Below, piece by piece: positions 17,855-64,000 of a DNA stretch of 64,000 bases. The stretch is taken from positions 6,684 through 70,683 of IMG/VR virus record IMGVR_UViG_2778261638_000005. One strand, given 5' to 3'. The position numbers were made by a program, and so were the translations under genes. A model generated the notes under the pieces. That model saw only the letters and a program-made list of their open reading frames with translations. It was not told the DNA's origin and made no database searches. The stretch's first letter is position 1. Each line of letters starts with the position of its first letter. This stretch comes from a virus. Its lineage: Duplodnaviria; Heunggongvirae; Uroviricota; Caudoviricetes.

Positions 17855-18471
17855 TGGTTGCCTCCTTTGCGAAGCTGGGCGGCGATATCTTCGAGAACGC
17901 CATCAGAGAATGAACGGTCAAAATCGCCTTCCGGCGCATTAGCCATAAACTCAGTAGAGGTAAGAATCATCCGGGCAATATCAGCGGCGTTCTTCGCAGT
18001 ATCATCAATAAAACCAGCTTCCCAGGCAGCCAGCATTCTGTTCGCCACAAAGTAAGCGCCCTCCTTGCGTGCTTCAGTCTTCACTTCAGCCAAGAAAGCG
18101 TCGGTGGCTGGGGTTTTTATTTCGTTAAGTGCATCACTGAATCCACCTCTCTCCATACCTAGCTCTGCTTCGTAATCGGCATCGAATGCAGCGTCTTTGC
18201 AGAACTTCTTCAGCTTTGCATTCTCCGCTGCCAGCGCCGAAAACTTCTCGTGTGCCAACTTAACAGCTGCATCAGCCTGCTTAATTGACTCAATCGCTCT
18301 CTGGTGGTCTTCGGCCAGCGCATTAGCACGCACCAGTTGCACTTCCAATTGCGTTGCCAAATTGCTGATCAGCTTTGCCACACTACGCATATCAACGGCC
18401 CCACATTCTGCTTTCAGTTCCGAAGCCATCTCATGCCCGGCGGAAACTAACCCTTTGATATTACTTTCCAT
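17851..18471 (-). CDS. hypothetical protein
   Basis: 206 aa helical protein, overlaps neighbour by 4 nt. Confidence 0.4.
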   Translation of the reverse strand: MESNIKGLVSAGHEMASELKAECGAVDMRSVAKLISNLATQLEVQLVRANALAEDHQRAIESIKQADAAVKLAHEKFSALAAENAKLKKFCKDAAFDADYEAELGMERGGFSDALNEIKTPATDAFLAEVKTEARKEGAYFVANRMLAAWEAGFIDDTAKNAADIARMILTSTEFMANAPEGDFDRSFSDGVLEDIAAQLRKGGNQ

Positions 18472-18532
18472 CTTTACCCTCGCTTATCCACATAACTTAT
18501 TGATTACATTGATAACTAAAAAGATCGTCGAT

Positions 18533-18877
18533 TCAGAACTCTTCGATATTCCAGCCGCCACCTGCTTTCTTTGGCTTAACCGTTACCCCGATGATTCGGA
18601 ACGGATACTGATCTGCGGCGACTTTGGTTTTCACCCTGGCGTCGTCGGTCCAGAAACCTTTCACTTCATGCAGTTCCATCTCACCAGTGGCGAGCATCAC
18701 AGCGAAATCTGGCGTATAGAACGTGTTGTCAGCCAGCCGCAGCTTGATACCCTCGAACCGATACCAGGCGATTTCCCCTGCACGTTTACGCTGCTCAAGG
18801 TGCTGGCAATACGCAGATTCTGTTTTGTTCATCTGGCCTGTTTTGAGTCGACCAAGAGCCTGTATCTGCTTTCTCAT
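18533..18877 (-). CDS. putative PD-(D/E)XK-type nuclease family protein
   Basis: 114 aa; TPDF...GEMELHEVKG resembles a PD..ExK motif; first gene downstream of P in the resident phage. Confidence 0.4.
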   Translation of the reverse strand: MRKQIQALGRLKTGQMNKTESAYCQHLEQRKRAGEIAWYRFEGIKLRLADNTFYTPDFAVMLATGEMELHEVKGFWTDDARVKTKVAADQYPFRIIGVTVKPKKAGGGWNIEEF

Positions 18878-18880
18878 GAT

Positions 18881-18957
18881 TTACCCCTGAGGTAATTAAA
18901 AACCACATAAGACACGAAATCAATAGATTTTAGAATATTTCATTACCCAGAAGGTAA
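18881..18957. promoter_or_regulatory. two TTACC-N5-GGTAA palindromic operator-like sites
   Basis: Perfect copies at 18881-18895 and 18943-18957, same motif as at 58187-58201 and 58899-58913 in the immunity region. Confidence 0.45.
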
Positions 18958-18994
18958 TTATTGAGGCGTAAAAAAATGCGCTATCGCGCTGGTA

Positions 18995-19091
18995 TTACTT
19001 GATAAATCCTGCCGCCTTTCCCCGCCTGTATTCCTCCATCAGCCACTGCGCCGGTGTTATTCCCCCCAGGGTGGCGGCGTTAGGCATGCAC
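18995..19091 (-). pseudogene. displaced 3' end of replication gene P (separated from its 5' part by the Mu-like insertion)
   Basis: Joining host sequence at 56001-56004 to 19091 downwards with one GCAC copy gives an in-frame continuation of P for about 30 codons ending at TAA 18995-18997. Confidence 0.35.
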
Positions 19092-19100
19092 TAAAGCGCG

Positions 19101-19175
19101 CAAAATCATTTGATACCGTTTTGAATTTTTTTTGATACCACCCAAAACGGCACAACGAAAAATTATTTGATACTA
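19101..19175. repeat. right-end transposase-binding repeats (three TTTGATAC cores, attR-like)
   Basis: Cores at 19109-19116, 19131-19138, 19166-19173; 22-bp spacing of the first two as for Mu R1-R2. Confidence 0.6.
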
Positions 19176-19910
19176 ATCGGGAGTGCTTTTAGGGTATGGC
19201 TGAACCCTGAATAGCTTAGTATTTAGCCGCTTCCTTGCTCGCTTGTTCAGGAACCTGATGTAGCGATACTGATTAAATTTGTGCACCACGGCACGCTCTT
19301 TATTAGCCCGTAAATACACGCCTCGTTGTCCACCGCGCTTAATTGCGTTCATCGTTATCTCGTGATACCACTCACCATCCAGCTCGTAGAACGTGCTTTC
19401 ATGGCTGCCAATAAAATCAAAATTCGACGCCTGATACACAACGCCTGCGCGTCCGCAGCGTTCGTCAGCAAAGGACTGAACCCACTCCACTGACGGATAC
19501 AGTAATCTGATAACTTTCAGCGCGTAGCTGATGGCCCGTGATTCAGAGTTGCGGGGCATGTCGTCGTGTAGCCACATGCGATTCAACTCCATATAGCCCC
19601 GGTTATCCGTTTCAAGCACGACACGACGACCTGAGTTGGGGTTAAGGGCATATCCCCACTGGAGAACGCCAACCAGATCGCGTCCGCTGAATACTCCCAG
19701 GTGGAGGTAAGAGTTATTCACAAAACGGCGGGAATAGTGCTTTGTCTGAATAATTGTGCGGGCCAGCCAGCAGGATATGGTTTCAACGCGCAGCTCCTTT
19801 GAACCATAGCCAACAATCTGGCCTTCATACTCAATAACGCACGGTTTCGTCAGAATGCGTGATTTTTTCTCTTTTCCCACAATGTTTCTCCGTGGGATGC
19901 TCGCAGGCAT
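19173..19910 (-). CDS. mom: Mom DNA-modification protein
   Basis: Last gene before the right end, overlapping com as in Mu; start codon uncertain (ATG at 19910 or GTG near 19880). Confidence 0.7.
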
Positions 19911-20749: not shown

Positions 20750-20777
20750 TTATCTAAAACCTCGGTTTACAGGAAAC
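20750..20777. repeat. gix recombination site (gin-proximal copy)
   Basis: TTATCTAAAACCTCGGTTTACAGGAAAC; inverted copy at 23813-23840 with 2 mismatches; matches the Mu gix sequence as recalled. Confidence 0.8.
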
Positions 20778-20931
20778 GGTAAACAGGGCTGGTAACGCCG
20801 TTCAAAAGACAGGCGATACCTTATCCGGTGGGCTTACTTTTGAAAACGACTCAATCCTTGCCTGGATTCGAAATACTGACTGGGCAAAGATTGGATTTAA
20901 AAATGATGCCGACAGCGACACAGATTCATAC

Positions 20932-21780
20932 ATGTGGTTTGAAACAGGCGACAACGGCAATGAATATTTCAAATGGAGAAGCAAACAAAGCACCACAACA
21001 AAAGACCTGATGAATCTTAAATGGGATGCTTTGTCTGTTCTTGTTAAAGCCCTTTTCAGCAGTGAAGTAAAAATATCGACAGTCAATGCACTGAGGATAT
21101 TTAATTCATCTTTTGGTGCCATTTTTCGCCGTTCTGAAGAATGCCTGCATATCATCCCTACACGAGAGAATGAGGGGGAAAATGGTGATATAGGGCCACT
21201 ACGTCCCTTTACGCTTAATCTCAGAACTGGCCGCATAACTATGGGGCATGGTCTGGATGTTACAGGAGATATAACAACTAACGCCTGGGTGTATGCAAAC
21301 AGGTTTGCTATTAATAGTGGCTCAACCTCATGGATTGATATGCGAAACCAGAATGTCATTTTTGGTAGAAACGCAGTATCAACAAGTTCTGCGCAGGCTT
21401 TGTTAAGACAAGACCATGCAGAACGCAAATTTTTTGTCGGTGGACTTGGTAACTACCAGTTTGGTTTTTACATGATTAATAACTCAAGGACAGCCAATGG
21501 CACCGATGGTCAGGCGTACATGGATAATAACGGTAACTGGCTTTGTGGCTCGCAAGTTATTCCTGGCAACTATGGCAATTTTGATTCCAGATATGTGAGA
21601 GATGTTCGCCTGGGTACGCGAGTTGTTCAATTGATGGCGCGTGGTGGTCGTTATGAAAAAGCCGGACACGCAATTACCGGATTAAGAATCATTGGTGAAG
21701 TAGATGGCGATGATGAAGCCATCTTCAGGCCAATACAAAAATACATCAATGGCACATGGTATAACGTCGCACAGGTGTAA
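20932..21780 (+). CDS. alternative tail-fibre variable domain Sv' (silent orientation)
   Basis: Open frame continues upstream to the gix site at about 20779; C-terminus INGTWYNVAQV parallels the S C-terminus INGTWYNAGSI; would fuse to the constant S part after inversion. Confidence 0.7.
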   Translation: MWFETGDNGNEYFKWRSKQSTTTKDLMNLKWDALSVLVKALFSSEVKISTVNALRIFNSSFGAIFRRSEECLHIIPTRENEGENGDIGPLRPFTLNLRTGRITMGHGLDVTGDITTNAWVYANRFAINSGSTSWIDMRNQNVIFGRNAVSTSSAQALLRQDHAERKFFVGGLGNYQFGFYMINNSRTANGTDGQAYMDNNGNWLCGSQVIPGNYGNFDSRYVRDVRLGTRVVQLMARGGRYEKAGHAITGLRIIGEVDGDDEAIFRPIQKYINGTWYNVAQV

Positions 21781-22311
21781 ATGATGCAGCATTTAAAAAA
21801 TATTAAGTCTGGAAATCCTAAAACGAAAGAACAATATCAGCTAACAAAGAATTTTGATGTTATCTGGTTATGGTCCGAAGACGATAAAAACTGGTATGAG
21901 GAAGTGAAAAACTTTCAGCCAGACACAATAAAGATTGTTTACGATGCAAATAATATTATTGTCGCCATCACTAAAGATGCCTCCACGCTTAACCCTGAAG
22001 GTTTTAGCGTCGTTGAGGTTCCTGATATTACAGCCAACCGCCGCGCTGATGATTCAGGAAAGTGGATGTTTAAGGATGGAGCTGTAGTTAAACGGATTTA
22101 TACGGCAGACGAACAGCAACAACAGGCCGAATCACAAAAGGCCGCATTGCTTTCCGAAGCTGAATCAGTCATCCAGCCGCTGGAACGCGCTGTCAGGCTG
22201 AATATGGCAACAGACGAGGAACGCACACGACTGGAAGCATGGGAACGCTACAGTGTTCTGGTCAGCCGTGTGGATACGGCAAATCCTGAATGGCCACAAA
22301 AGCCTGAATAA
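21781..22311 (+). CDS. alternative tail-fibre assembly protein U'
   Basis: 176 aa; N-terminus near-identical in pattern to U ([18 protein letters not shown]); convergent with U. Confidence 0.75.
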
Positions 22312-22316
22312 AAATT

Positions 22317-22338
22317 AAGGCCCGCTATCGGGCCTTGT
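22317..22338. terminator. bidirectional stem-loop between convergent U and U'
   Basis: GGCCCG-ctat-CGGGCC hairpin between the two stop codons at 22309-22311 and 22340-22342. Confidence 0.5.
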
Positions 22339-22339
22339 C

Positions 22340-22873
22340 TCATTCAGGTTGTTCGGGAAATGTTACTGGCAGGCTGGAGGTGTCTGTAGATTCGACTTTC
22401 TGCGCATAGAGCATCCACTCAGTTAATTTTTGTTTATTCTCGTCGGAAATGATGCCCAGCCGTAGCTGTGAGTCCCATAGCTGGGTTTTATCCCTGACAA
22501 GTTGCAACAGGCTTTGTTTTTCATTCTCTGCCTGCTGCCTTTGTTCCTCCTCGGTATAAGTTCGCTTTATCACTACGCCATCTTTGAACATCCATTTACC
22601 CGAAATATCAGCCCGGCGATTTGCTGTAATATCAGGAACCTCAACGACGCTTGCGCCTTCTGGATTAATTGCTGAAACATCCTTTTCAATACAAATAATA
22701 ACGTCGTTGTGGTCATAGACCATTTTCAACGTATCAGGCTGAAAGTTCTTTTGTTCCTCATACCAGTTTTTCCCATCCTCTGTATAAAGCCATTTGATGT
22801 TAAATTGTTTCGTTAGCTGGTATTGCTCTTTTGTTTTAGGGTTGCCAGCAGTAATGTTTTTTAAGTGCATCAT
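22340..22873 (-). CDS. tail-fibre assembly protein U
   Basis: 177 aa, paralogue of U', immediately after S. Confidence 0.8.
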   Translation of the reverse strand: MMHLKNITAGNPKTKEQYQLTKQFNIKWLYTEDGKNWYEEQKNFQPDTLKMVYDHNDVIICIEKDVSAINPEGASVVEVPDITANRRADISGKWMFKDGVVIKRTYTEEEQRQQAENEKQSLLQLVRDKTQLWDSQLRLGIISDENKQKLTEWMLYAQKVESTDTSSLPVTFPEQPE

Positions 22874-22875
22874 CG

Positions 22876-24336
22876 TTAAATACTCCCCGCGTTATACCAC
22901 GTCCCATTAATGCAATACTGAATTGGCCTTGCCTGAGTTGTATCAATTAATTCATCACGGTTTCCGTTAACTGAACCTGTAACGACATAACCTGACCTGT
23001 CAGACCAGCCGGGACCATTCCATGTCTGAACAGATGACAGACCGCCCAGGCGAATACCTGTAATAAACCTTGAGTTACATTCTGCCTGCGTATATGCACC
23101 AACATCCCCCGCAGAGGGTTTGCGGGTTGTGGTGTAAAACTCTGACCAGTTAGCTTCAAAGCCATAACCATCACGCGCTGAACGATAAAAGATACCGCCG
23201 TTCTTATAATTCACGCGGAACTGTACAGCAGGGCAACTCCCCGCATTCATATTGAAGTGGAGGATTAATGTCGATGCGCCACTGATATCTGCATCATAAA
23301 CGCCGCTATTCCAGTTCCAGCCAACAGCTTTATCATTTGCAACCCTGCTTCCTGTTTGCCCTAAAGCAAATGCAGGCTGCTGGTTTTTCGTGTTGTAGTC
23401 TCTTCGCCAGCCAGGAGCATAAGCATCACCATGATTAATATAAGTGAATTGAGCGTTAGTAATTCCGCCACCGCTGGACGTGCTCGGGGTGGTTACACGG
23501 ATGGTCATGGCTCCTTTATTACCCATAACCTCAATAACGCAACCTGCAAGATGAATAGTTCCACAGCCAGTATCGGTAATAATTTTATTATTGCCGTATG
23601 ACCATGAACATTTGCACATCCAGTATGGGTGATTGAATGCCCCTTGAGAATCCAGCCATTCAATCAATTGTGCCGTCGTCCAGTTTCCTGCACCTGTGCT
23701 AATAGCACTGTGAAAAGCGCGACATGCACCAATATTTTTTGTGAAAGTATCTTTTCCTGGAATATCTGCGCCGTTCTGGTTTTTCTGTAATGCGCCAGAA
23801 GCCTGATTTACCGTTTCCTGTAAACCGACGTTTTGGATAAACAGCGGCTTATTGGGAATATCTGCTCCGTTCCGGTCTTTTGCCAGACGGGCATTGGCAT
23901 TATCCATCGCAATTTTCACCGCTTTTGCGGTGGCTGCCAGCGTTTCACTGGGGCTGTCAGTGGCACTGGTTAGCTGAACGAGTCCTTTTTTGTTCAGGCT
24001 GGCATCATAGATATCCAGATTTTCACGTGCTGTACGCTGTGCTGATGCCCCGGCAGTTTTAATTTCACTGAGGTTATTTTTTATCAGCAGCGCGTTATTG
24101 CTCATAATGGCTTTAATGGACAGTGCAAGCTGGTTTAATTTTGTTTTATCCGGTTGAATACCGGCTTCTTCCAGCGTGTTTAATAACTCCGCCTGCACAA
24201 TATTAAACCAGTCCATGCCGGGCCATGTGATAACATTATTCCCGTCACCTTCTGAAAACCAGCGAACGATAGCACTACGCTGGGCGGATACGGGCGGCAT
24301 GACGGTTACGCCGCTGTCGTTATCAATATAAAACAT
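22876..24336 (-). CDS. tail-fibre protein S (constant N-terminal part plus variable Sv part inside the invertible segment)
   Basis: 486 aa; gix site lies inside the gene at 23813-23840; internal NGADIP repeat. Confidence 0.8.
   Translation of the reverse strand: MFYIDNDSGVTVMPPVSAQRSAIVRWFSEGDGNNVITWPGMDWFNIVQAELLNTLEEAGIQPDKTKLNQLALSIKAIMSNNALLIKNNLSEIKTAGASAQRTARENLDIYDASLNKKGLVQLTSATDSPSETLAATAKAVKIAMDNANARLAKDRNGADIPNKPLFIQNVGLQETVNQASGALQKNQNGADIPGKDTFTKNIGACRAFHSAISTGAGNWTTAQLIEWLDSQGAFNHPYWMCKCSWSYGNNKIITDTGCGTIHLAGCVIEVMGNKGAMTIRVTTPSTSSGGGITNAQFTYINHGDAYAPGWRRDYNTKNQQPAFALGQTGSRVANDKAVGWNWNSGVYDADISGASTLILHFNMNAGSCPAVQFRVNYKNGGIFYRSARDGYGFEANWSEFYTTTRKPSAGDVGAYTQAECNSRFITGIRLGGLSSVQTWNGPGWSDRSGYVVTGSVNGNRDELIDTTQARPIQYCINGTWYNAGSI
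23813..23840. repeat. gix recombination site (copy inside S gene)
   Basis: GTTTCCTGTAAACCGACGTTTTGGATAA, reverse complement of the 20750-20777 site with 2 mismatches. Confidence 0.8.
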
Positions 24337-39757: not shown

Positions 39758-41240
39758 GGGTCAGCATGTCGATAAGTTCTGCATCATCCATCTGCGGATA
39801 TAATGAAGCGGCTTTGTTCATGGCGGCTTCCGGGCCATCTTTCAGCACAGAAAAAATGACGGGTTTCAGCAGGGGATCAACCGAACGCTGCCAGTCTTCC
39901 GGTGAGACGCCCATCCGGTCGATATCATCCTCCTGCGGGATATCTTCAGCGGATAATGCGGCCTCTTTCTGCGGACCGTTATCCATGACGACCGGTTGAG
40001 CAGTAAACACGGCTTCATCACCGACCGGTTGTGGAATATGGAGTTTTTCCTGTATCCAGGAGACCGGAATACGCATTCCCGCCGCCAGTTTCGGAATGGC
40101 GTCAGACAGTGCCGTAATATCACCCGCTTCACTGGTATCAAATACAATGCCCGGCAGGCGGTTAATATCAATGGTGCTGTCACTGTTCAGTGCCAGCAGG
40201 GGATAAATCAGGTCACGGTTAATACTGCGGGCAAGCTGGCCCACATCCGCATTACGGATTTCCCGGCGAACCTCATCATGCACTTCACCCAGCGACCGCG
40301 CACCTTTATCGCCAGCCTCTGTGGTCAGGGTGCCGCCCAGAATGGCTTTTGAAATCGCTTTTTCTGCCCAGCCAATCATCGCCATAAAAGGGTCTGACTG
40401 ACCATCTGCGGCGCTCTGAAAATCCAGCGTCATCCCCATCGGAATAATGCCACCGGCACGTCGCCCGATATCCATCACGGCCTGCATCAGCGTGGCTTTC
40501 TCGCGGTTCGTTGAGCCGGTCGGATATTTACCGACGCGCATGGGGAGTCCGTAAATTTCCAGAAACTCTGCAAAATCACGCACGGAATAGTTTTTAAAAA
40601 TAAAAGGCCAGATAAGCGTGCGCACAAGGCCATTGGTGCCGACATACCCGGTGCGGGATTTGGCCCGGTGCATAAACCAGCCGAACGGTTGCAGCTCCAG
40701 CCCGTGATAAGACGCATCACGCAGGCGTAATTCGTTCAGATTGTCGGGGTTCGCGCAGAACAGCGCCGGATCGCGATGATGCAGCGCCACCGGCACGCGC
40801 ATTTTCCCCAGCCAGCCCCATTCAATCTCCTGCATGGAATAGCCCTTGAGAATGGCATCACCGGCATCAAACAGGGCATCTTCAAACCACGCCGCATCAT
40901 GCAGATATTCATTCAGCATGTCGGCGTCTTTTTTCTCCTGTGCGCTGGCATCACGTGCCGGAGCGATGCGCCATTCCAGCGCCTGAATGGCAAGGCGGCG
41001 TTTGCTCAGTTCGGAAAAAAGGTGGGTGTCCTTTTCTTCCATATCAAAGGCCAGGTCAGCCTGTGCTGTCAGATCACCGCGTTCGGCATCACGCAGCATC
41101 TGCGCGGCCCGGTTCGGCGTCACACCACTGGAAGGATGCTCCTGCGTACGCTTCATGACCATTGCCAGCTCATCGCTGCGGGTCTGCATTTCATCGTCAA
41201 AATCAAACGGCTGCCCGGAAATATCCAGAATACGGCCCAT
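39702..41240 (-). CDS. Mu-type portal protein (gp29-like)
   Basis: 512 aa immediately after terminase large subunit. Confidence 0.8.
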   Translation of the reverse strand: MGRILDISGQPFDFDDEMQTRSDELAMVMKRTQEHPSSGVTPNRAAQMLRDAERGDLTAQADLAFDMEEKDTHLFSELSKRRLAIQALEWRIAPARDASAQEKKDADMLNEYLHDAAWFEDALFDAGDAILKGYSMQEIEWGWLGKMRVPVALHHRDPALFCANPDNLNELRLRDASYHGLELQPFGWFMHRAKSRTGYVGTNGLVRTLIWPFIFKNYSVRDFAEFLEIYGLPMRVGKYPTGSTNREKATLMQAVMDIGRRAGGIIPMGMTLDFQSAADGQSDPFMAMIGWAEKAISKAILGGTLTTEAGDKGARSLGEVHDEVRREIRNADVGQLARSINRDLIYPLLALNSDSTIDINRLPGIVFDTSEAGDITALSDAIPKLAAGMRIPVSWIQEKLHIPQPVGDEAVFTAQPVVMDNGPQKEAALSAEDIPQEDDIDRMGVSPEDWQRSVDPLLKPVIFSVLKDGPEAAMNKAASLYPQMDDAELIDMLTRAIFVADIWGRLDAAADH

Positions 41241-51698: not shown

Positions 51699-51709
51699 TA
51701 TTTATCCCC

Positions 51710-52642
51710 TTACCACCAGTTCAGTAATTTCGGGTTGCTGTAAACCTCTTTAAAAGCTGCTTTAATGTAGCCTTTGGATAGAGGAACGCCTTTCCCGCTG
51801 GCAGCCAGCCACGCCTGATTCAGCGTATGAGTTAATACACGTAATGCACCTGGTTTTTCCGCGATGCTCTGCATGAGTGATAATTCATCTTCGCCCTCAA
51901 TGCCCCAGGCTTTCGCAATTGCCACCACGTCAGCCTTTTTGGCTTTACGTAGTTGCTTTGTTCTGGCGAAACGACTGAACAAACGTGCAAGGTCATCTGT
52001 TCCCCGGTGTGTGGCTTTGGCTAACTGGTGTGGGTTGCCAATCAATACCATCCCGACGCCGGTTGCATCCTGAATGGCGCGTAACTGCTCCAGCCCGTCC
52101 ATGCTCAGGTGGTCAGCTTCATCCACAATAACCAGACCGCGTGTGCCATTCAGTTTTTTGCGAATGGCGCGGGTCAATGCGCCTTTATTCCTTTGCGGAT
52201 TATCAATTCCCAGCGCGTCTGCCAGCTCCAGCAGACACTCAGTCACTGTTGAGTGTGCAGGGGAAAGGGTCACCATCCAGGTATTAGATACACGGTTACT
52301 GTATTCACGGGCCGCAACGGTTTTACCAACACCCGGCACACCAACCAGAACGCTGATACAGCCCATAACACGCACGGTCTGAAACAGCTCGCGCAAATCA
52401 CGGAGGGTTTGTGTTTCCACAAGTTGTGGTGCGCCAGGTAACTCCAGACTTTTTTGCCAGCTCTGATGCCACATCAGTAATTTGTCATGCATCCCTTCGG
52501 TATCACCTTTGTAACGGCCTTTGCGAAGTTCAGAAAGAGTGGCCTCCGACACCCCCGCTTCTTTAGCAATAGCGCTTTGTGTTTTTACGCCGTCAGTAAT
52601 AAGTGTGTTAATCGTGTTGAAAACATCATTAATATCGGTCAT
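51710..52642 (-). CDS. B: transposition ATPase B (target DNA activator)
   Basis: 310 aa; Walker A GVPGVGKT, Walker B LVIVDEADHL; N-terminal HTH; downstream of transposase. Confidence 0.9.
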   Translation of the reverse strand: MTDINDVFNTINTLITDGVKTQSAIAKEAGVSEATLSELRKGRYKGDTEGMHDKLLMWHQSWQKSLELPGAPQLVETQTLRDLRELFQTVRVMGCISVLVGVPGVGKTVAAREYSNRVSNTWMVTLSPAHSTVTECLLELADALGIDNPQRNKGALTRAIRKKLNGTRGLVIVDEADHLSMDGLEQLRAIQDATGVGMVLIGNPHQLAKATHRGTDDLARLFSRFARTKQLRKAKKADVVAIAKAWGIEGEDELSLMQSIAEKPGALRVLTHTLNQAWLAASGKGVPLSKGYIKAAFKEVYSNPKLLNWW

Positions 52643-52715
52643 ATTATTCTCCGTTTATTCAAATCAGCTTTGTTTCCTTCGTTTAACAGTCCGTTCCCGC
52701 GGACTGTTTTTTTAT

Positions 52716-54803
52716 TCAGGCCAGCGGATCATCCTGTTCCTGTATGGCTACAAGCTTCTGCAAACCCAGCCTGAAATCGCGTTCATAATCTTCGTCGTAA
52801 TCCTCCTCATAATCCTGTTGCTGGATGGTTACCGTATTGCCAACCGGGCGATAAACATTATCCAGCCAGGGTTCAGCCTGTTTGTGCTCCAGTATCTGAA
52901 TGCCTTCATCCTCAGCATCACGAATTTTTTCCTCAGCACGTTTGCGCATTCCTTTAATACGCTGCTGTTGTTTGTGATATTCAGCACTGACAGCAAAGGC
53001 TGCGCGTTTATTGCCGTTCCATATCGCCTCACAGATAAAGCTGCCGTCCTTGCGACGTACCGTAATTCGCTCGGCGTCATGAATGTCATAACTGATAAGT
53101 ACTTTGCGACCGTGTTCGTCACGCAACTCCGGCGCGTAGTAAATATTGTTCAGCCACTGAATTTCGCACCGTCTTACCGGGCGTTCCACCATCGGGCGGA
53201 ACATGTCGCGCAGCTCAAGATCACTCAGCCACTCAATTTCGGTGCCTTCTTCTGCCAGGCGTTTTTTTCTGAACTCTGCCGGGCTGTAATGCCGCCCGTT
53301 CGGTTTCATTGGCAGCTCAGAATGCGGGCGGTTGTTGTACCATTCCACGCCTTCACGAATAGCCTCAATAAGCTCCGCCCACGATGGTAGCTCGCGCATT
53401 GCAGCTTTCTGGCGGTCGTTCAGAGGCTTGTCCTGTTGCATGGCGTTAAACGCTGAACGCAGATCACGGTTAAGTACACGCAACGATTCCCGGTCAGCAC
53501 CCTTGCCAAAATAGGTGCGATACCTCCTGGCTATACGCATCGGCAGTGTCCGGTTCAGGCGTTCAATAATGCCGCGCCCCTGTGGATTACCGGCAATACC
53601 GGTAGGGTGTTTAATCCCCAGGCGGGGCAGAATACCCACGATCTCTTTGTCCAGTATGTCAGCCGTTTCACCAGAACCATTATCCGAGTAATACAGAAAC
53701 GGTTTTCCGTGGTTGCGAATGCCGTGCTGTATCGCACCGGCAACGGCGAACACGTTCTCGGCAAGGTCAAGACTCCAGCCAACAACAAACCGGGTTCCAC
53801 CGTCGATCACAAATGTAACTTCCGGTGAGAATGGACGCCCGTGGATCGGATGTGCACATTTCAGCTTCATACCGTGACCGTCACCAATCCAGACATAATT
53901 CACCGGCATAGCTGTCCAGTCGCGGCGGGTGAATCCTTCAAGCTGACGGTATTCACTGCCGGTAACGCGCCCTTTTTGTTTCACCACTTCCGGCAGTTTT
54001 TTCATGGCATACCGGACAACATCATAGGAAGGCATCACCTCCAGCATGTATGGTTCGTCCGCATGGCGACGCTGCCAATCAGCGACAAAATCCTCATAGG
54101 CTTCAGACATAGGCCTGCCGTTAGCCTGACGATACTGCGCCAGAAATTCAGGCAGCCAGCTAATTTCTTCCGGTTTTATTTCGTCGCGCTTTCCTGGTGC
54201 CAGTAACAGCAGTCGTTCTGCGGCATTCTGTGCTTTGTTAAACGCAGCTATCCAACGTTTGAGCGTAATTGCGCTCAGAGTTCGCTCTTTTCCTTTACGG
54301 GCATTAGCAGTAATGACCAAAGATTCCAGGCGTTCTTCCAGGTTACCCTGCGCTAACCGCGACACAATAAAACGTATAGCGCTGGCACAACTGAATCCCG
54401 GCTCCTGGCTAATTCGTAGAACTTCACAGACAAGAGCAATGCGCGCTTCTGCAACTTTACGTTGATTTTCCGTAAGCGCATTCAGACGCTCTTCTACCAA
54501 TTGTGGCGAACCGCGATATGCCTCAACAGGCTGTACAACATTTTGTTTGCGTTCACGCTTTACAGGAGGCTGGGTAGTTATCTCCCGCGGGGCGCTTGCC
54601 ATCAGTTGAGCTACATGTCGCTCACGTAACGCCCGTTGTGTAACCGGAGGGAGGCAGTCGATGCTGTATTCAATGGTTTTTGAACCCGCACGTTTGCGCC
54701 TGAAATGCTCAGATGAGGCCAGTTTCCTTATGGAATACCGCACCCCTTGCGCAGTTCCCGGCATACCTGGTAACCCTACAAGCTCATTAACTGATACAAA
54801 CAT
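52716..54803 (-). CDS. A: DDE transposase A
   Basis: 695 aa; Mu-A-like catalytic core; N-terminal end-binding domain diverged from Mu A as recalled. Confidence 0.9.
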   Translation of the reverse strand: MFVSVNELVGLPGMPGTAQGVRYSIRKLASSEHFRRKRAGSKTIEYSIDCLPPVTQRALRERHVAQLMASAPREITTQPPVKRERKQNVVQPVEAYRGSPQLVEERLNALTENQRKVAEARIALVCEVLRISQEPGFSCASAIRFIVSRLAQGNLEERLESLVITANARKGKERTLSAITLKRWIAAFNKAQNAAERLLLLAPGKRDEIKPEEISWLPEFLAQYRQANGRPMSEAYEDFVADWQRRHADEPYMLEVMPSYDVVRYAMKKLPEVVKQKGRVTGSEYRQLEGFTRRDWTAMPVNYVWIGDGHGMKLKCAHPIHGRPFSPEVTFVIDGGTRFVVGWSLDLAENVFAVAGAIQHGIRNHGKPFLYYSDNGSGETADILDKEIVGILPRLGIKHPTGIAGNPQGRGIIERLNRTLPMRIARRYRTYFGKGADRESLRVLNRDLRSAFNAMQQDKPLNDRQKAAMRELPSWAELIEAIREGVEWYNNRPHSELPMKPNGRHYSPAEFRKKRLAEEGTEIEWLSDLELRDMFRPMVERPVRRCEIQWLNNIYYAPELRDEHGRKVLISYDIHDAERITVRRKDGSFICEAIWNGNKRAAFAVSAEYHKQQQRIKGMRKRAEEKIRDAEDEGIQILEHKQAEPWLDNVYRPVGNTVTIQQQDYEEDYDEDYERDFRLGLQKLVAIQEQDDPLA

Positions 54804-54805
54804 TT

Positions 54806-55042
54806 TTATGCCACCTTACGAGCGTAACGGCTGGGCCAGATCTCCTCCGGCGCAACACCAATAGCATCAGCAATAATGCGCTCATATTTTGGGCATTTGC
54901 GGTACAGGGCATTCTTTAAAGAATCCTGGTTTAAACCGGCTTCAATGGACAGAGAGCGTAAAGTAAAACCTTTTACATGCACCGCCGCGACAACATGCGC
55001 GGGGTGCCAGTCCTGTTTAACAACTTCATTTATAGACATCAT
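54806..55042 (-). CDS. ner: Ner-like DNA-binding regulator
   Basis: Probable start MMSINEV at 55042 with AAGGA RBS; C-terminal EEIWPSRY matches Ner family. Confidence 0.8.
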   Translation of the reverse strand: MMSINEVVKQDWHPAHVVAAVHVKGFTLRSLSIEAGLNQDSLKNALYRKCPKYERIIADAIGVAPEEIWPSRYARKVA

Positions 55043-55182
55043 TCGTTTATCCTTAAAAGTTATCTGCGCGGATAACACCGCCGGATAATCTCTACAGATA
55101 AATATTTGATCACTACAAAAGAAAAGTAAAGGTGTTTTATCTCTTTCTTTGGTTGTTTTTATCTACAAAAGGATATTTCTTT
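55043..55182. promoter_or_regulatory. divergent early promoter/operator region between ner and c
   Basis: 140-bp AT-rich intergenic region between divergent repressor and ner genes. Confidence 0.5.
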
Positions 55183-55767
55183 ATGAATCATATGGTTAAC
55201 AGAAAAGAAAGAAGCACTGAAAAAGAAAGTGATTTTTCTTTTCCTGTGTTTCAAAAAGAAAGCATTAAAGAGCGCCTAGCCATGCTAATGCGCGGGCGCT
55301 CCAAGACTGCCGTGGCGAAGGCGTGGGGGCTACCGTTCTCAACACTTAACAACTACTTTGAGAAAGATGCGACACCATCTCTACAAGTAGCTAGTCAGAT
55401 TGCTTTTGCAGAAGGGGTGAGCATTGATTGGCTTGTTTTTGGCAAGGAGGATATAGAACCAATATCACCTAAAATAGATGAAAACGTCCAATTGCCCCTA
55501 GATATAACGCTACAGCGCCTTCTTGCTATACTAAGTGCTTTAGAAGCATCAGAGGCAGAGCGATTATCAAAAATCCTCGCGCTAAATGGAGCTAAGTACT
55601 TGTCACGGTTACTTGAACCAGAGAATCAAGAACTAATCCAACTTGAAGGACGAAAACGTGCAGCAGCTCTACTTTTAGATCATTTATCGGATGAAAGAGT
55701 TAGAGAGATTTTGGCAGAAATTGAAAGCGATAAACTCTCAAGTAGTTTAGAATCGAAGGCGGGCTAA
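55183..55767 (+). CDS. Mu-type c repressor
   Basis: 194 aa from ATG 55183 (AAGGA RBS); divergent from ner, reads toward left end. Confidence 0.7.
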   Translation: MNHMVNRKERSTEKESDFSFPVFQKESIKERLAMLMRGRSKTAVAKAWGLPFSTLNNYFEKDATPSLQVASQIAFAEGVSIDWLVFGKEDIEPISPKIDENVQLPLDITLQRLLAILSALEASEAERLSKILALNGAKYLSRLLEPENQELIQLEGRKRAAALLLDHLSDERVREILAEIESDKLSSSLESKAG

Positions 55768-55794
55768 TTCCAATAGCCCGCGGCTGGTTTTTTA
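55760..55794 (+). terminator. terminator-like hairpin after repressor gene
   Basis: GCGGGCTA-N7-TAGCCCGC stem followed a few nt later by TTTTTT. Confidence 0.35.
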
Positions 55795-55829
55795 ACCTGT
55801 TTAAAACGTTAAAATCGCAGAAATCAGTA

Positions 55830-56000
55830 GTATCAAATATTTTTTCGTTTTTAGCTTTCTTTGCGACAGTAGTATCAAATCACATGTTGTGCGCATAACA
55901 CTGTTTTACGTCATAACTGTTTGTTTTATCCCATCAAATCCCGTTTGATCCACTTTCCTCCCGGATTTTTCAGCAGTATCAAATGATTTACCTCTCTATA
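55830..56000. repeat. left-end transposase-binding repeats (three GTATCAAA cores, attL-like)
   Basis: Cores at 55830-55837, 55872-55879, 55976-55983; spacing 42 and 104 bp mirrors Mu L3-L2-L1; adjacent sequence GAAAAATCCGGGAGG...GATGGGAT resembles the Mu left end. Confidence 0.6.
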
Positions 56001-56639
56001 GCACCCGAAACTTCGCCCTGGTGGATGGTAAACGTCTCTCCCTGTTTCCGGAGGCGTACTCATGGGTTCTGGCTTTGCCTGTATGCTGATCACCGGATCG
56101 GGTATCTGCTGTCCGGAAGCCACCTTTTTCGCCCAATCATCGAGCAGCCTGCGCGCGTGTTTCTCAACCTCAATCTCGCTAAGCTGGCGCTGATACATTG
56201 CACGGCGGGTATCACATACGACCCAGTACATAACCGGATGCCGCCACGGGAATCTTTCGGGACCACCAGGATATAAACTTTTTTCCTTGCTGTACCGGTG
56301 AAACTCCGTCATCACATCGTCAATGGTGACGCCAAGAACCATCTTGCTGTCTTTGCACCACTTGATGAATTGCCCTGGCGACGGCCAGAACGGAGAATCA
56401 CTGGCGCGGGCGTGGCGCATACCAGCAGAAACCTGTTCACGGGTTCGGATCCCCCCTTCAGCAAACGCAGCAATCCACTGCTGTTTTGCAGCAACTTCCT
56501 GCTCTGGCGTCTTCAGGTTGGTTACCACTGCCGCCGGAAACAGTTGTTTCAACTGTTTGAAAAGGGCATCAACAAGCCTCTCTGCTGACATGTTCACTAC
56601 GTTGTCATTGTTGGTGTACTGATGCTCATAACCTGACAT
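55926..56639 (-). CDS. lambda P-like replication protein, 3' end interrupted by Mu-like insertion
   Basis: FAEGGIRTREQVSAGMRHARASDSPFWPSPGQFIKWCKD matches lambda P core; the last 24 codons are encoded by the Mu-like left end. Confidence 0.75.
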   Translation of the reverse strand: MSGYEHQYTNNDNVVNMSAERLVDALFKQLKQLFPAAVVTNLKTPEQEVAAKQQWIAAFAEGGIRTREQVSAGMRHARASDSPFWPSPGQFIKWCKDSKMVLGVTIDDVMTEFHRYSKEKSLYPGGPERFPWRHPVMYWVVCDTRRAMYQRQLSEIEVEKHARRLLDDWAKKVASGQQIPDPVISIQAKPEPMSTPPETGRDVYHPPGRSFGCYREVNHLILLKNPGGKWIKRDLMG

Positions 56640-56689
56640 GCGAGAAAGGGCCTCTCCGTCACGGTTTTGTATTGCGGTAAAAACGTTGT

Positions 56690-57505
56690 TCACAAGAAAT
56701 CCTCCCATGCTTCAGGGCTGTTCCAGTGCGGAACGTTGTTATCAGGTAATGTTGATTGCTTCTGTCTGCTAATCTGCAGCCGCCTTGCCAGCTTCTGCTC
56801 CCACTGTGCCTGATGGTATGCCTTACCCTCAGCCATCCAGTAAATTCTGAACTCTGCAAGTTCCTGTGCCGTTGGCAGACTGTCCAGGTAGATCCCCTGC
56901 AATGAGCTTTTCCGAAGAAAGTCATCTGATGGCTGCCATTGTTCATGCATGACAAATTTGCCTAATTGCCCTGGCCCACCAGGAGGAACAAAGTTATTCA
57001 TCACGGCGTTGTTTGCGCCGGGGTCATGAGGCACAGAATTCCCGTTTTTTGTCCTGCTCTCCCTCTCTTGGTTAAATGACTGGTTATATGACTGGTTCTG
57101 GATCCCGTTTTTGGGATCATTCAACATCCCGTTTTTGGGATCATTCAACATCCCGTTTTTGGTTATATTACCGTTTTCGGGAACATTACCGTTTTCGGGT
57201 TCATTCCCCCCTTCCCGGTTGCCTTTAATGTTCCCGTTTTTGGTTATATTAAGAGAGAAAACCCGCACTCTTTTCGTCGCTCCCTTTCTCTCTTCGGTAT
57301 CTGAAATAAGCCCCATTTTCATGAGCGATATAAGCCCGGCCTGCACGGTTTTTTTATTCAGGCAAGTGTCTTTAACGAGGCGTTCTATGCTGGGGTAGCA
57401 GAGGTTATATTCATCGGCTCTGTCAGCCATCGAGAGCAGTATGAGCTTTAATGATGAGCTACCTGGATCTGTCTCCCAGGCCCAATCTGTTGCATGTCTG
57501 CTCAT
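56690..57505 (-). CDS. lambda O-like replication initiator
   Basis: 271 aa; repetitive Asn/Gly-rich central region encoded by DNA iterons; precedes P. Confidence 0.75.
   Translation of the reverse strand: MSRHATDWAWETDPGSSSLKLILLSMADRADEYNLCYPSIERLVKDTCLNKKTVQAGLISLMKMGLISDTEERKGATKRVRVFSLNITKNGNIKGNREGGNEPENGNVPENGNITKNGMLNDPKNGMLNDPKNGIQNQSYNQSFNQERESRTKNGNSVPHDPGANNAVMNNFVPPGGPGQLGKFVMHEQWQPSDDFLRKSSLQGIYLDSLPTAQELAEFRIYWMAEGKAYHQAQWEQKLARRLQISRQKQSTLPDNNVPHWNSPEAWEDFL
57120..57270. repeat. replication origin iterons inside the O-like gene
   Basis: Tandem repeats such as ATCCCGTTTTTGGGATCATTCAAC (x2), CCCGTTTTTGGTTATATT, ACCGTTTTCGGG (x2). Confidence 0.7.
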
Positions 57506-62749: not shown

Positions 62750-64000
62750 TTATTCCCCCGCCATCCACTTCTCAAACTTCGACGGGGAGAACGGAATCAG
62801 ATCCGTATGCTCCCCGTTAATCCAGGAATCAATCATATCGGCCCACTGCTGCAACATGTAGGCGCGCTGTCTGGCATATTCCGCTTTGTTATATACGGCG
62901 CGCACACCTTTCTGCTCATGTGCCAGAGCCTTTTCAATCCAGTCTGAAGGATAACCAGCCTCATGCAACAACGTACTGGCTGTACGGCGCATATCATGTA
63001 CAGTGAAGTCCTGAATATGCTCACCATCTTCATTTATTATTTTCACCGTTCTGTCGATCAGAGAGTTCAGCGCGGCATTAGATAATGGCTTCCGGAAGTT
63101 GTAACGACCAGGAACCAGATATTCACTTCCACCAGCGCACATCTGCAACCCTACCAATATATCCTGTGCCTGTTTAGGCAGGTAAATAACGTGCGCCCGG
63201 CTTCCCTTCATGCGGTCTGAAGGAATTGTCCATGTCCATTTTTTAAAATCTATTTCATCCCACGTTGCATTGGTGAACTCGCCTTTACGAACCATAGTGA
63301 TAAGCACCAGCTTTAAAGCCATTTTCATAGTGCCCATAGCACCAATGGCATCCAGCGTACGGAAGAACAGGCCAATTTCTTCTGGTGTCAGTGTTCGCTC
63401 TCGTGGTTTAAATATGGCGATAGACGAAGGTTTAATGTCAGCCGCAGGATTAAACAAACCATGACCACGGTCATTGGCGTGACGGTATACGCTGCTGATG
63501 ATCTCCCTGGCCTGTACTGCTGTTGCCCGGCCACCGCGTTCGACAATCCGGTCACACAAATCACGAACCATCGATGTGGTAATTTCAGCCATCATTTTGT
63601 TGCCAAGAACCGGAAGTATGTCACGGTCTATCACTGCCTGCTTCATTGCGCGGGTACTTTCAGCCAGGATGACGTGTTTCATATAACTGTCGGTATGTAC
63701 CGAAAACGTCTCGGCACCACGAATCTTTTTGATACCGTCACGTTTAGCCGTAGCCGGTGACTGGCCTGCTTTAAGCAGCTTCTTTGCAGCAATCAGTTCT
63801 TCTCGAGCTTCTGCCAGGCTGATACCGTCACGCCCATACTGCCCGATTACCAGTGTTTCGCGGCGACCGTTGATACGGTAGTCATAGCGAAACGAGACCG
63901 TACCTGACGTAAGTACAGCTACATACAGCCCGTCACGATCGGAGACTTTGTATAGTTTGTCCTGCGGCTTGAGGTTTTTTAATTTTGTATCGGTAAGCAC
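62750..64000 (-). CDS. tyrosine integrase (P4-type family), start at or just beyond window end
   Basis: 416 aa; N-terminal LTDTKLKNLKP; C-terminal catalytic region with R...HDMRRT...Y motif pattern. Confidence 0.85.
   Translation of the reverse strand: MLTDTKLKNLKPQDKLYKVSDRDGLYVAVLTSGTVSFRYDYRINGRRETLVIGQYGRDGISLAEAREELIAAKKLLKAGQSPATAKRDGIKKIRGAETFSVHTDSYMKHVILAESTRAMKQAVIDRDILPVLGNKMMAEITTSMVRDLCDRIVERGGRATAVQAREIISSVYRHANDRGHGLFNPAADIKPSSIAIFKPRERTLTPEEIGLFFRTLDAIGAMGTMKMALKLVLITMVRKGEFTNATWDEIDFKKWTWTIPSDRMKGSRAHVIYLPKQAQDILVGLQMCAGGSEYLVPGRYNFRKPLSNAALNSLIDRTVKIINEDGEHIQDFTVHDMRRTASTLLHEAGYPSDWIEKALAHEQKGVRAVYNKAEYARQRAYMLQQWADMIDSWINGEHTDLIPFSPSKFEKWMAGE

Follow-up and report, generated by a model that had tools for sequence, protein, structure and literature searches.

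The window, by which we mean the whole stretch of 64,000 nucleotides analysed here, contains a Mu-like element of 36,909 bp that runs from 19092 to 56000, has 5'-TA...TA-3' ends and is flanked by a 4-bp target duplication (Table 1). The element interrupts the gene for a lambdoid replication protein, P, at 97 nt from the 3' end, so that the Mu-like prophage is nested within a lambdoid one; this interruption should disable replication of the lambdoid prophage. The junction of the window itself was found in none of the 5,426 complete E. coli genomes searched. At the 19092 end, mom is the last gene before attR, and this end is therefore the right end of the element, as the preliminary description of this DNA had proposed. 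The opposite end carries attL together with the repressor, ner, A, and B genes.

Table 1 Features of the Mu-like element and of its insertion site in the lambdoid P gene (positions are those of the window).
Feature	Position	Strand	Basis or remark
3' fragment of interrupted lambdoid replication gene P	18995..19091	-	Mapped from intact P (L001); 99.9% identical to NZ_AP022036.1
Left copy of the 4-bp target-site duplication (GCAC)	19088..19091	+	Part of interrupted gene P; empty site with single GCAC
attR module, non-Mu right-end DNA, 97 bp	19092..19188	+	Mu homology ends at 19189
R1 core (TTTGATAC)	19109..19116	+	18-25 nt from terminus; offset the same in Sp18-like relative
R2 core (TTTGATAC)	19131..19138	+	22 bp after R1
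R3 core (TTTGATAC)	19166..19173	+	75-82 nt from terminus; offset 75 kept in Sp18-like relative
mom (DNA modification gene), last gene before attR	19173..19910	-	Annotated Mom in near-identical copies; 97.5% identical to Mu from 19189 inward
B gene, MuB-like AAA+ target-delivery ATPase, 310 aa	51710..52642	-	Phage-MuB_C E = 5e-24; AAA_22
A gene, DDE transposase, 695 aa	52716..54803	-	Mu-transpos_C E = 1.8e-18; HTH_Tnp_Mu_1 E = 1.3e-6
ner-like early regulator, longest ORF	54806..55078	-	Pfam HTH_35 E = 4e-25
Repressor, CI/HTH_3 type, not Mu c type, longest ORF	55132..55767	+	Pfam Phage_CI_repr, HTH_3
attL	55801..56000	-	Terminus 56000; found in 10 E. coli genomes
L3 core (TTTGATAC)	55830..55837	-	164-171 nt from left terminus; Mu L3 core nt 167
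L2 core (TTTGATAC)	55872..55879	-	122-129 nt from left terminus; Mu L2 core nt 127
L1 core (TTTGATAC)	55976..55983	-	18-25 nt from left terminus
Right copy of the 4-bp target-site duplication (GCAC)	56001..56004	+	Flank alignments and insertion survey
5' fragment of interrupted lambdoid replication gene P	56001..56693	-	Mapped from intact P (L001); 99.9% identical to NZ_AP022036.1

Most of the element is Mu. Specifically, BLAST against Mu (NC_000929) gave 97-98% nucleotide identity over about 32 kb of the window, from 51703, immediately after B, to 19189, in the last codons of mom. The DNA without Mu homology was confined to 4.3 kb at the left (51704-56000) and 97 bp at the right (19092-19188). 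High nucleotide identity over most of the genome (about 32 of 36.9 kb) is what is expected of a member of the genus Muvirus. The invertible G segment with the tail-fibre genes (about 20750-23840) is inverted relative to the Mu reference and about 87% identical to it, and the tail-fibre genes in other copies of this phage type are markedly different, those of strains S6 and 1290, for example, encoding a 'pyocin knob domain' fibre. We also observed a group of mom-bearing E. coli prophages, represented by N61 (NZ_AP028880.1, L153), that match the window only from 19159 inward and have an extra gene between mom and the right end, giving another right-end variant. The mom coordinates were taken over from L002, whose sequence is collinear with this part of the window, and the position of the mom stop codon (TAG, - strand, 19173-19175) was inferred from the RefSeq mom annotation in L002. 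With this placement, the mom coding sequence runs into the predicted transposase-binding region, where the last base of the R3 core overlaps the stop codon.

By these homologies, the phage is a Mu in which the transposition module has been replaced, the predicted cis sites of both ends having been exchanged along with the proteins. Presumably, the joint swap of the two ends took place through two crossovers with a phage that shared homology in mom and in the early region.

The proteins of the swapped module are of the Mu kind, at some distance from those of Mu itself. The A protein is 22% identical to MuA and collinear with it (BLASTP E = 9e-14), and its catalytic DDE triad is intact, with D308 and D374 aligned to MuA D269 and D336, and E414 aligned to MuA E392. 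HTH_Tnp_Mu_1 and Mu-transpos_C scored above the Pfam cut-offs, and the match to rve was weak. When the A protein was compared with the PDB (phmmer), only its N-terminal domain reached MuA (1tns, domain I-alpha; E = 5e-5), and the core gave weak scores with retroviral integrases. The domain organisation of MuA (N-terminal enhancer-binding region, catalytic core, C-terminal beta-barrel) is recognisable in the A protein. The B protein is 44% identical to MuB, and its gene lies immediately downstream of A, as in the Mu family.

With regard to regulation, the repressor is annotated as a helix-turn-helix protein in other copies of the element. In Mu, the N-termini of the repressor and the transposase are homologous and have operator/enhancer sites in common. 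Here, the repressor is of the CI/HTH_3 type, while the transposase keeps a Mu I-alpha-type N-terminal domain. It is possible that the sharing of operator/enhancer sites by repressor and transposase, in the style of Mu, is absent from this element.

We then considered where exactly the element ends. The preliminary description had placed its termini at 19092 and 56000 on the basis of a gapless alignment of the two ends, and had noted flanking GCAC copies of 4 bp, instead of the 5 bp of Mu, and TA instead of TG/CA at the termini. In the window sequence, the + strand reads TAAAGCGCGCAAAATCATTTGATACCG... from 19092, directly preceded by GCAC, and at the other end it reads ...GTATCAAATGATTTACCTCTCTATA up to 56000, followed by GCAC again. 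Two 25-mers, one from each end, align without gaps and are identical at 20 of 25 positions. Read inward, the attR terminus is 5'-TAAAGCGCGC..., and the transferred strand hence ends ...GCGCGCTTTA-3'; the attL terminus is 5'-TATAGAGAGG..., and the + strand hence ends ...CCTCTCTATA-3'.

The comparison with an empty site that had been recommended for this locus was carried out by aligning both flanks to the 5,426 complete E. coli genomes. A lambdoid prophage region of NZ_AP022036.1 and NZ_CP067426.1 matched both the left flank (18300-19091) and the right flank (56001-56800), in each case at 99.9% identity. In NZ_AP022036.1, where P is uninterrupted, the left alignment ended at record base 1308565 and the right alignment started at 1308568, so that the two overlapped by exactly four bases, GCAC. 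Since the empty-site alignments of the left and right flanks overlap by GCAC only, GCAC is target DNA that was present in a single copy before insertion. The uninterrupted P genes thus fit the boundaries at 19092 and 56000. Queries that reached 40 bases into each flank of the junction gave 157 matching records; those without the attR were P-gene records, and the P-gene matches listed all stopped exactly at 19091. A target origin of the TA dinucleotide was ruled out, as TA is missing from the insertion point of the empty site.

The ends of the element have an ordered architecture. The motif TTTGATAC occurs in eight exact copies in the window against 1.9 expected, a number reached in none of 100 shuffles, and six of the eight copies lie within 171 bp of the termini, all pointing inward. 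The three right-end cores and the 22-bp spacing of the first two that had been described earlier hold at every coordinate. Measured from the termini, the cores start at 18, 40, and 75 nt on the right and at 18, 122, and 164 nt on the left. The CGAAA cores of Mu lie at 22, 127, and 167 nt on the left and at 22 and 44 nt on the right. The predicted transposase sites therefore have the layout of the Mu family, in which L1 stands apart from L2-L3 and R1 and R2 are adjacent, although Mu-type att sites with the CGAAA-containing 22-bp consensus are absent from these ends. The two isolated copies of TTTGATAC, at 40135-40142 (-) in the Mu head region and at 63728-63735 (+) outside the element, equal the chance expectation of about two.

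The position, orientation, and conservation of these repeats suggest that TTTGATAC is bound by the A protein. The repeats could instead have arisen by chance or could be regulatory motifs that serve mom/com control or repressor binding; the R3 core does overlap the mom stop codon, and the assignment as transposase sites is a prediction from sequence. We consider such an alternative role or origin very unlikely given the fourfold enrichment of TTTGATAC over shuffles and the inward direction of all six terminal copies. Furthermore, the offsets are nearly identical in a relative in which the intervening sequence has diverged, the layout mirrors L1-L3 and R1-R2 of Mu, and the presence of the motif follows that of the A gene, not that of mom, which is derived from Mu.

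To place the termini in a wider context, we surveyed 13 insertions, each at a different locus, that comprised the window, ten complete E. coli genomes, one IMG/VR genome, and one metagenome contig. When the sequence just outside both termini was compared by script, 12 of the 13 insertions gave a perfect direct repeat of 4 bp, and none gave one of 5 bp. The 12 repeats were GCAC, TTAA, TCAC, GGCT, CGCG, CGAC, CGCT, TATC, TTCG, TGCC, AACA, and CTTA. All 13 copies start with TA at both termini, even though bases 4-5 of the left end vary (TATAGAG, TATGAAG, TATGGAG). Among the complete E. coli genomes, the right end was found in 11 and the left end in 10, at unrelated loci. Seven of the 11 attR alignments start exactly at 19092 and four extend 1-9 bases into the flank; the attL alignments end at 56000 in most of the ten genomes. 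The insertion loci include ydcO, glpT, a ppsR-like kinase gene, rlmB, mscM, sslE, an epimerase gene, a monooxygenase gene, and the ydcV/patD spacer. As in the Mu family, insertion has thus occurred at many unrelated chromosomal sites (13 loci) with a short target duplication. For a Mu-type prophage in E. coli W, which served as the positive control, this script returned TG termini and a 5-bp repeat (GCGGC). E24377A was discarded as the Mu-type control in favour of E. coli W, as its element is truncated and ompA/sulA are already reached at +36 kb.

The sole copy without a duplication was that of FDAARGOS_1059 (NZ_CP066032.1; L003 positions 1000 and 38205), which is flanked by an SDR oxidoreductase pseudogene and, at the opposite end, by ycjO/ycjP. 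Because its two flanks come from different loci, this copy suggests a later rearrangement, namely a prophage-mediated deletion or inversion. We also scanned 596 Gb of contigs with the shared 14-mer AAATCATTTGATAC; this pattern is too short and returned only chance matches in unrelated taxa.

The A protein pointed to the relatives of the module. Its identity was 97% to vB_YpM_5 and vB_YpM_6, 78% to Mu-like phages residing in Stx phages (Sp18-like), 57% to Tongde and Kp4866-3, 49% to VW-6B, 43% to SuMu, and about 31% to D3112/DMS3-like Pseudomonas phages. The closest relatives, vB_YpM_5 and vB_YpM_6 (MT374853, MT374854; PMC10434027), are also members of Muvirus, and the match of their A protein extends over 95% of its length. 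Like the window element, vB_YpM_5 has ...GCGCGCTTTA at the right and TATGAAGAGG/TATAGAGAGG at the left, TTTGATAC at the same offsets, and a Mu-like remainder of the genome. The two Yersinia phages differ from the window copy in that they are virion isolates with circularised assemblies, whereas the window copy is a prophage inside a lambdoid prophage. In the vB_YpM_5 record, ...GCGCGCTTTA and TATGAAGAGG... are about 80 bp of non-phage DNA apart, so that the attR of the 'circular' genome (L152, MT374853.1, 4645-4731) is joined to the attL via non-phage DNA. This join is probably an assembly artefact of the variable host DNA that is packaged at Mu-type ends. Because vB_YpM_5 carries TA termini, they are used by a plaque-forming phage. 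The ends and the duplication length are not discussed in the report on these Yersinia phages (PMC10434027).

A module of the same kind, with a 4-bp duplication and TA at the right end, is present in Sp18 of O157 Sakai and in Sp18-like phages (LC727895, LC727881). These phages differ from the window element in that they are a separate species, with only 64-74% nucleotide identity across the genome, and in that their left end is TG and not TA. The 4-bp repeat of Sp18 in O157:H7 Sakai is TAAA. For LC727895, the depositors annotated a 4-bp 'duplication due to insertion of Mu'; its ends are TGTAACC (left) and TATAGCG (right), and its TTTGATAC cores lie at 18, 113, and 165 nt on the left and at 18, 40, and 75 nt on the right, in ends that are otherwise diverged. 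Mu-like phages within Stx phages have been described as Sp18-like (PMC10132054), and neither their ends nor their duplications are discussed in the Sp18 papers. The window element shares with the Sp18/vB_YpM_5 type the fixed offsets of TTTGATAC, the 4-bp duplication, and an A protein that is at least 75% identical.

Among the IMG/VR matches listed, the left termini were TGTAACCAGG (15 sites), TATAACCAGG (5), TATGAAGAGG, and TATGACGAGG, and the right termini were TATAGCGCGG (7), TATAGCGCGC (3), and TGTAGCGCG(C/T) (3). The left and right ends are unpaired by contig in these matches, which provide terminal sequences only. These terminal sequences indicate that, in the Sp18/vB_YpM_5-type family, the second base is A or G at either end and at different insertion sites.

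The survey and the relatives bear on whether the element might transpose in the manner of Mu, with a 5-bp stagger and TG/CA ends, its 4-bp repeat and TA ends being marks that mutation has left on a defunct prophage. If one mismatch is allowed, a 5-bp repeat can indeed be read at this locus (TGCAC/AGCAC or GCACT/GCACC). Decay is nevertheless extremely improbable, as all 12 intact insertions, at loci unrelated to one another, have a repeat of exactly 4 bp, with a mismatch at the fifth base every time. TA is moreover found at both ends in all copies and in the viable phage vB_YpM_5, Sp18-type relatives also have 4 bp, and the transposition genes are all intact. To canonical TG...CA termini at 19087 and 56003, the alternative raised in the preliminary description for an insertion without target duplication, we give practically no credence: a TG (19087-19088) and a CA (56002-56003) do exist in the sequence, and the transposable phages described so far, Mu included, end in TG...CA (PMC8705779), but 19087-19091 and 56001-56003 are host sequence aligned at 99.9-100% to uninterrupted P genes, 19092 and 56000 are the exact points at which homology to the other insertions and to the empty site breaks off, the bases outside these positions differ each time in the 12 other insertions while TA and the sequence inward of it are constant, and such termini would set the first binding sites unequally, at 22 and 20 nt from the ends.

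The boundary is therefore settled at 19092 and 56000 with a 4-bp duplication, and the empty-site alignments and the 12 independent insertions show that the termini and the repeat exceed chance. The expectation of 5 bp and TG/CA fails here because the ends and the A and B genes are not those of Mu: they belong to the vB_YpM_5/Sp18-type lineage, in which 4 bp is the rule. We are highly confident that 19092-56000 is an intact transposable prophage, a mosaic of Mu with a vB_YpM_5/6-type module, that transposed into the lambdoid P gene. Its intact genes and its relatives point to an active prophage.

The termini, the duplication length, the site layout, the intact DDE-triad transposase, and the MuB-like partner gene are established here, and the element most likely follows a pathway in which binding, cleavage chemistry, and stagger geometry would be analogous to those known for Mu. 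The A protein would bind the six TTTGATAC-containing sites and pair the two ends. It would then nick after the terminal A of each transferred strand (...TTTA-3' and ...TATA-3'). The B protein would deliver the target, and each 3'-OH end would be joined to a target phosphate, the two joining points being offset by 4 bp. The GCAC duplication would finally arise when the gaps are repaired or replicated. In the vB_YpM_5/Sp18-type lineage, the penultimate base of the transferred strand may be either T or C. Lee and Harshey reportedly found in 2001 that the terminal CA matters in Mu, and MuA itself would therefore probably act poorly on TA termini.

With regard to previous descriptions, a 2021 survey gives duplications of 5 bp (Mu) or 6 bp (B3) for transposable phages, and TG-CA ends were conserved in all Mu/B3-like phages described until then (PMC8705779). 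A shift of 5 bp likewise brings the forward and reverse insertion profiles of a D3112-like phage into coincidence (PMC5977238). TA-TA ends were reported as new in Leptospira prophages with a 6-bp duplication, and the authors asked whether they occur in other bacteria (PMC8705779). In the literature searched, we found no explicit statement of a 4-bp duplication in Mu-like phages, nor of its combination with TA ends. A 4-bp duplication combined with TA ends in an enterobacterial module of the MuA family is thus outside the published description. Sp18, the Sp18-like phages, and vB_YpM_5/6 are themselves already known, and one GenBank record (LC727895) annotates the 4-bp repeat. We regard it as an evenly balanced question whether the A-B module of the vB_YpM_5/Sp18 type constitutes a Mu-family transpososome lineage so far undescribed in print, with a 4-bp stagger and a second terminal base of A or G at either end.

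If this is the case, the 4-bp stagger would lie outside the range of 5-6 bp quoted for transposable phages, and TA-TA transposable prophages would extend from Leptospira to the Enterobacteriaceae. The question raised with the Leptospira prophages receives a positive answer from the present element, in that TA-TA transposable prophages exist outside that genus. For annotation, the boundaries of the prophage are fixed to the base, and criteria modelled on Mu, with its 5-bp repeat and TG/CA ends, will misplace the ends of this whole enterobacterial group of Mu-like prophages. The matched swap of attL-c-ner-A-B and of only 97 bp at the far end illustrates that a transposase has to be exchanged along with its cis sites at both ends. 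The 4-bp/TA behaviour of the vB_YpM_5/Sp18-type lineage is under-documented, and its near-isogenic contrast with Mu is experimentally convenient: outside the module, the element and Mu offer a natural comparison for cut spacing and for the reading of terminal dinucleotides by DDE transpososomes.

Compared with Mu (NC_000929), the element has the same three sites per end, a similar L1-L2 gap (about 104 bp), the same R1-R2 distance (22 bp), and a two-protein system of A plus B. The semi-essential early region, the lysis, head, and tail genes, the G segment with gin, and com/mom are the regions covered by the match to Mu. The element differs from Mu in its TTTGATAC motif in place of the CGAAA-containing consensus, in TA in place of TG/CA ends, in 4 bp in place of 5 bp, in its CI-type repressor, and in the low identity of its A and B proteins noted above. 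The TA-TA prophages of Leptospira likewise have TA at both ends of a transposable prophage (PMC8705779), but they reside in spirochaetes, encode a transposase of the B3/Tn552 family, and produce a 6-bp duplication, whereas the element described here has a MuA-family transposase, duplicates 4 bp, and resides in the Enterobacteriaceae.
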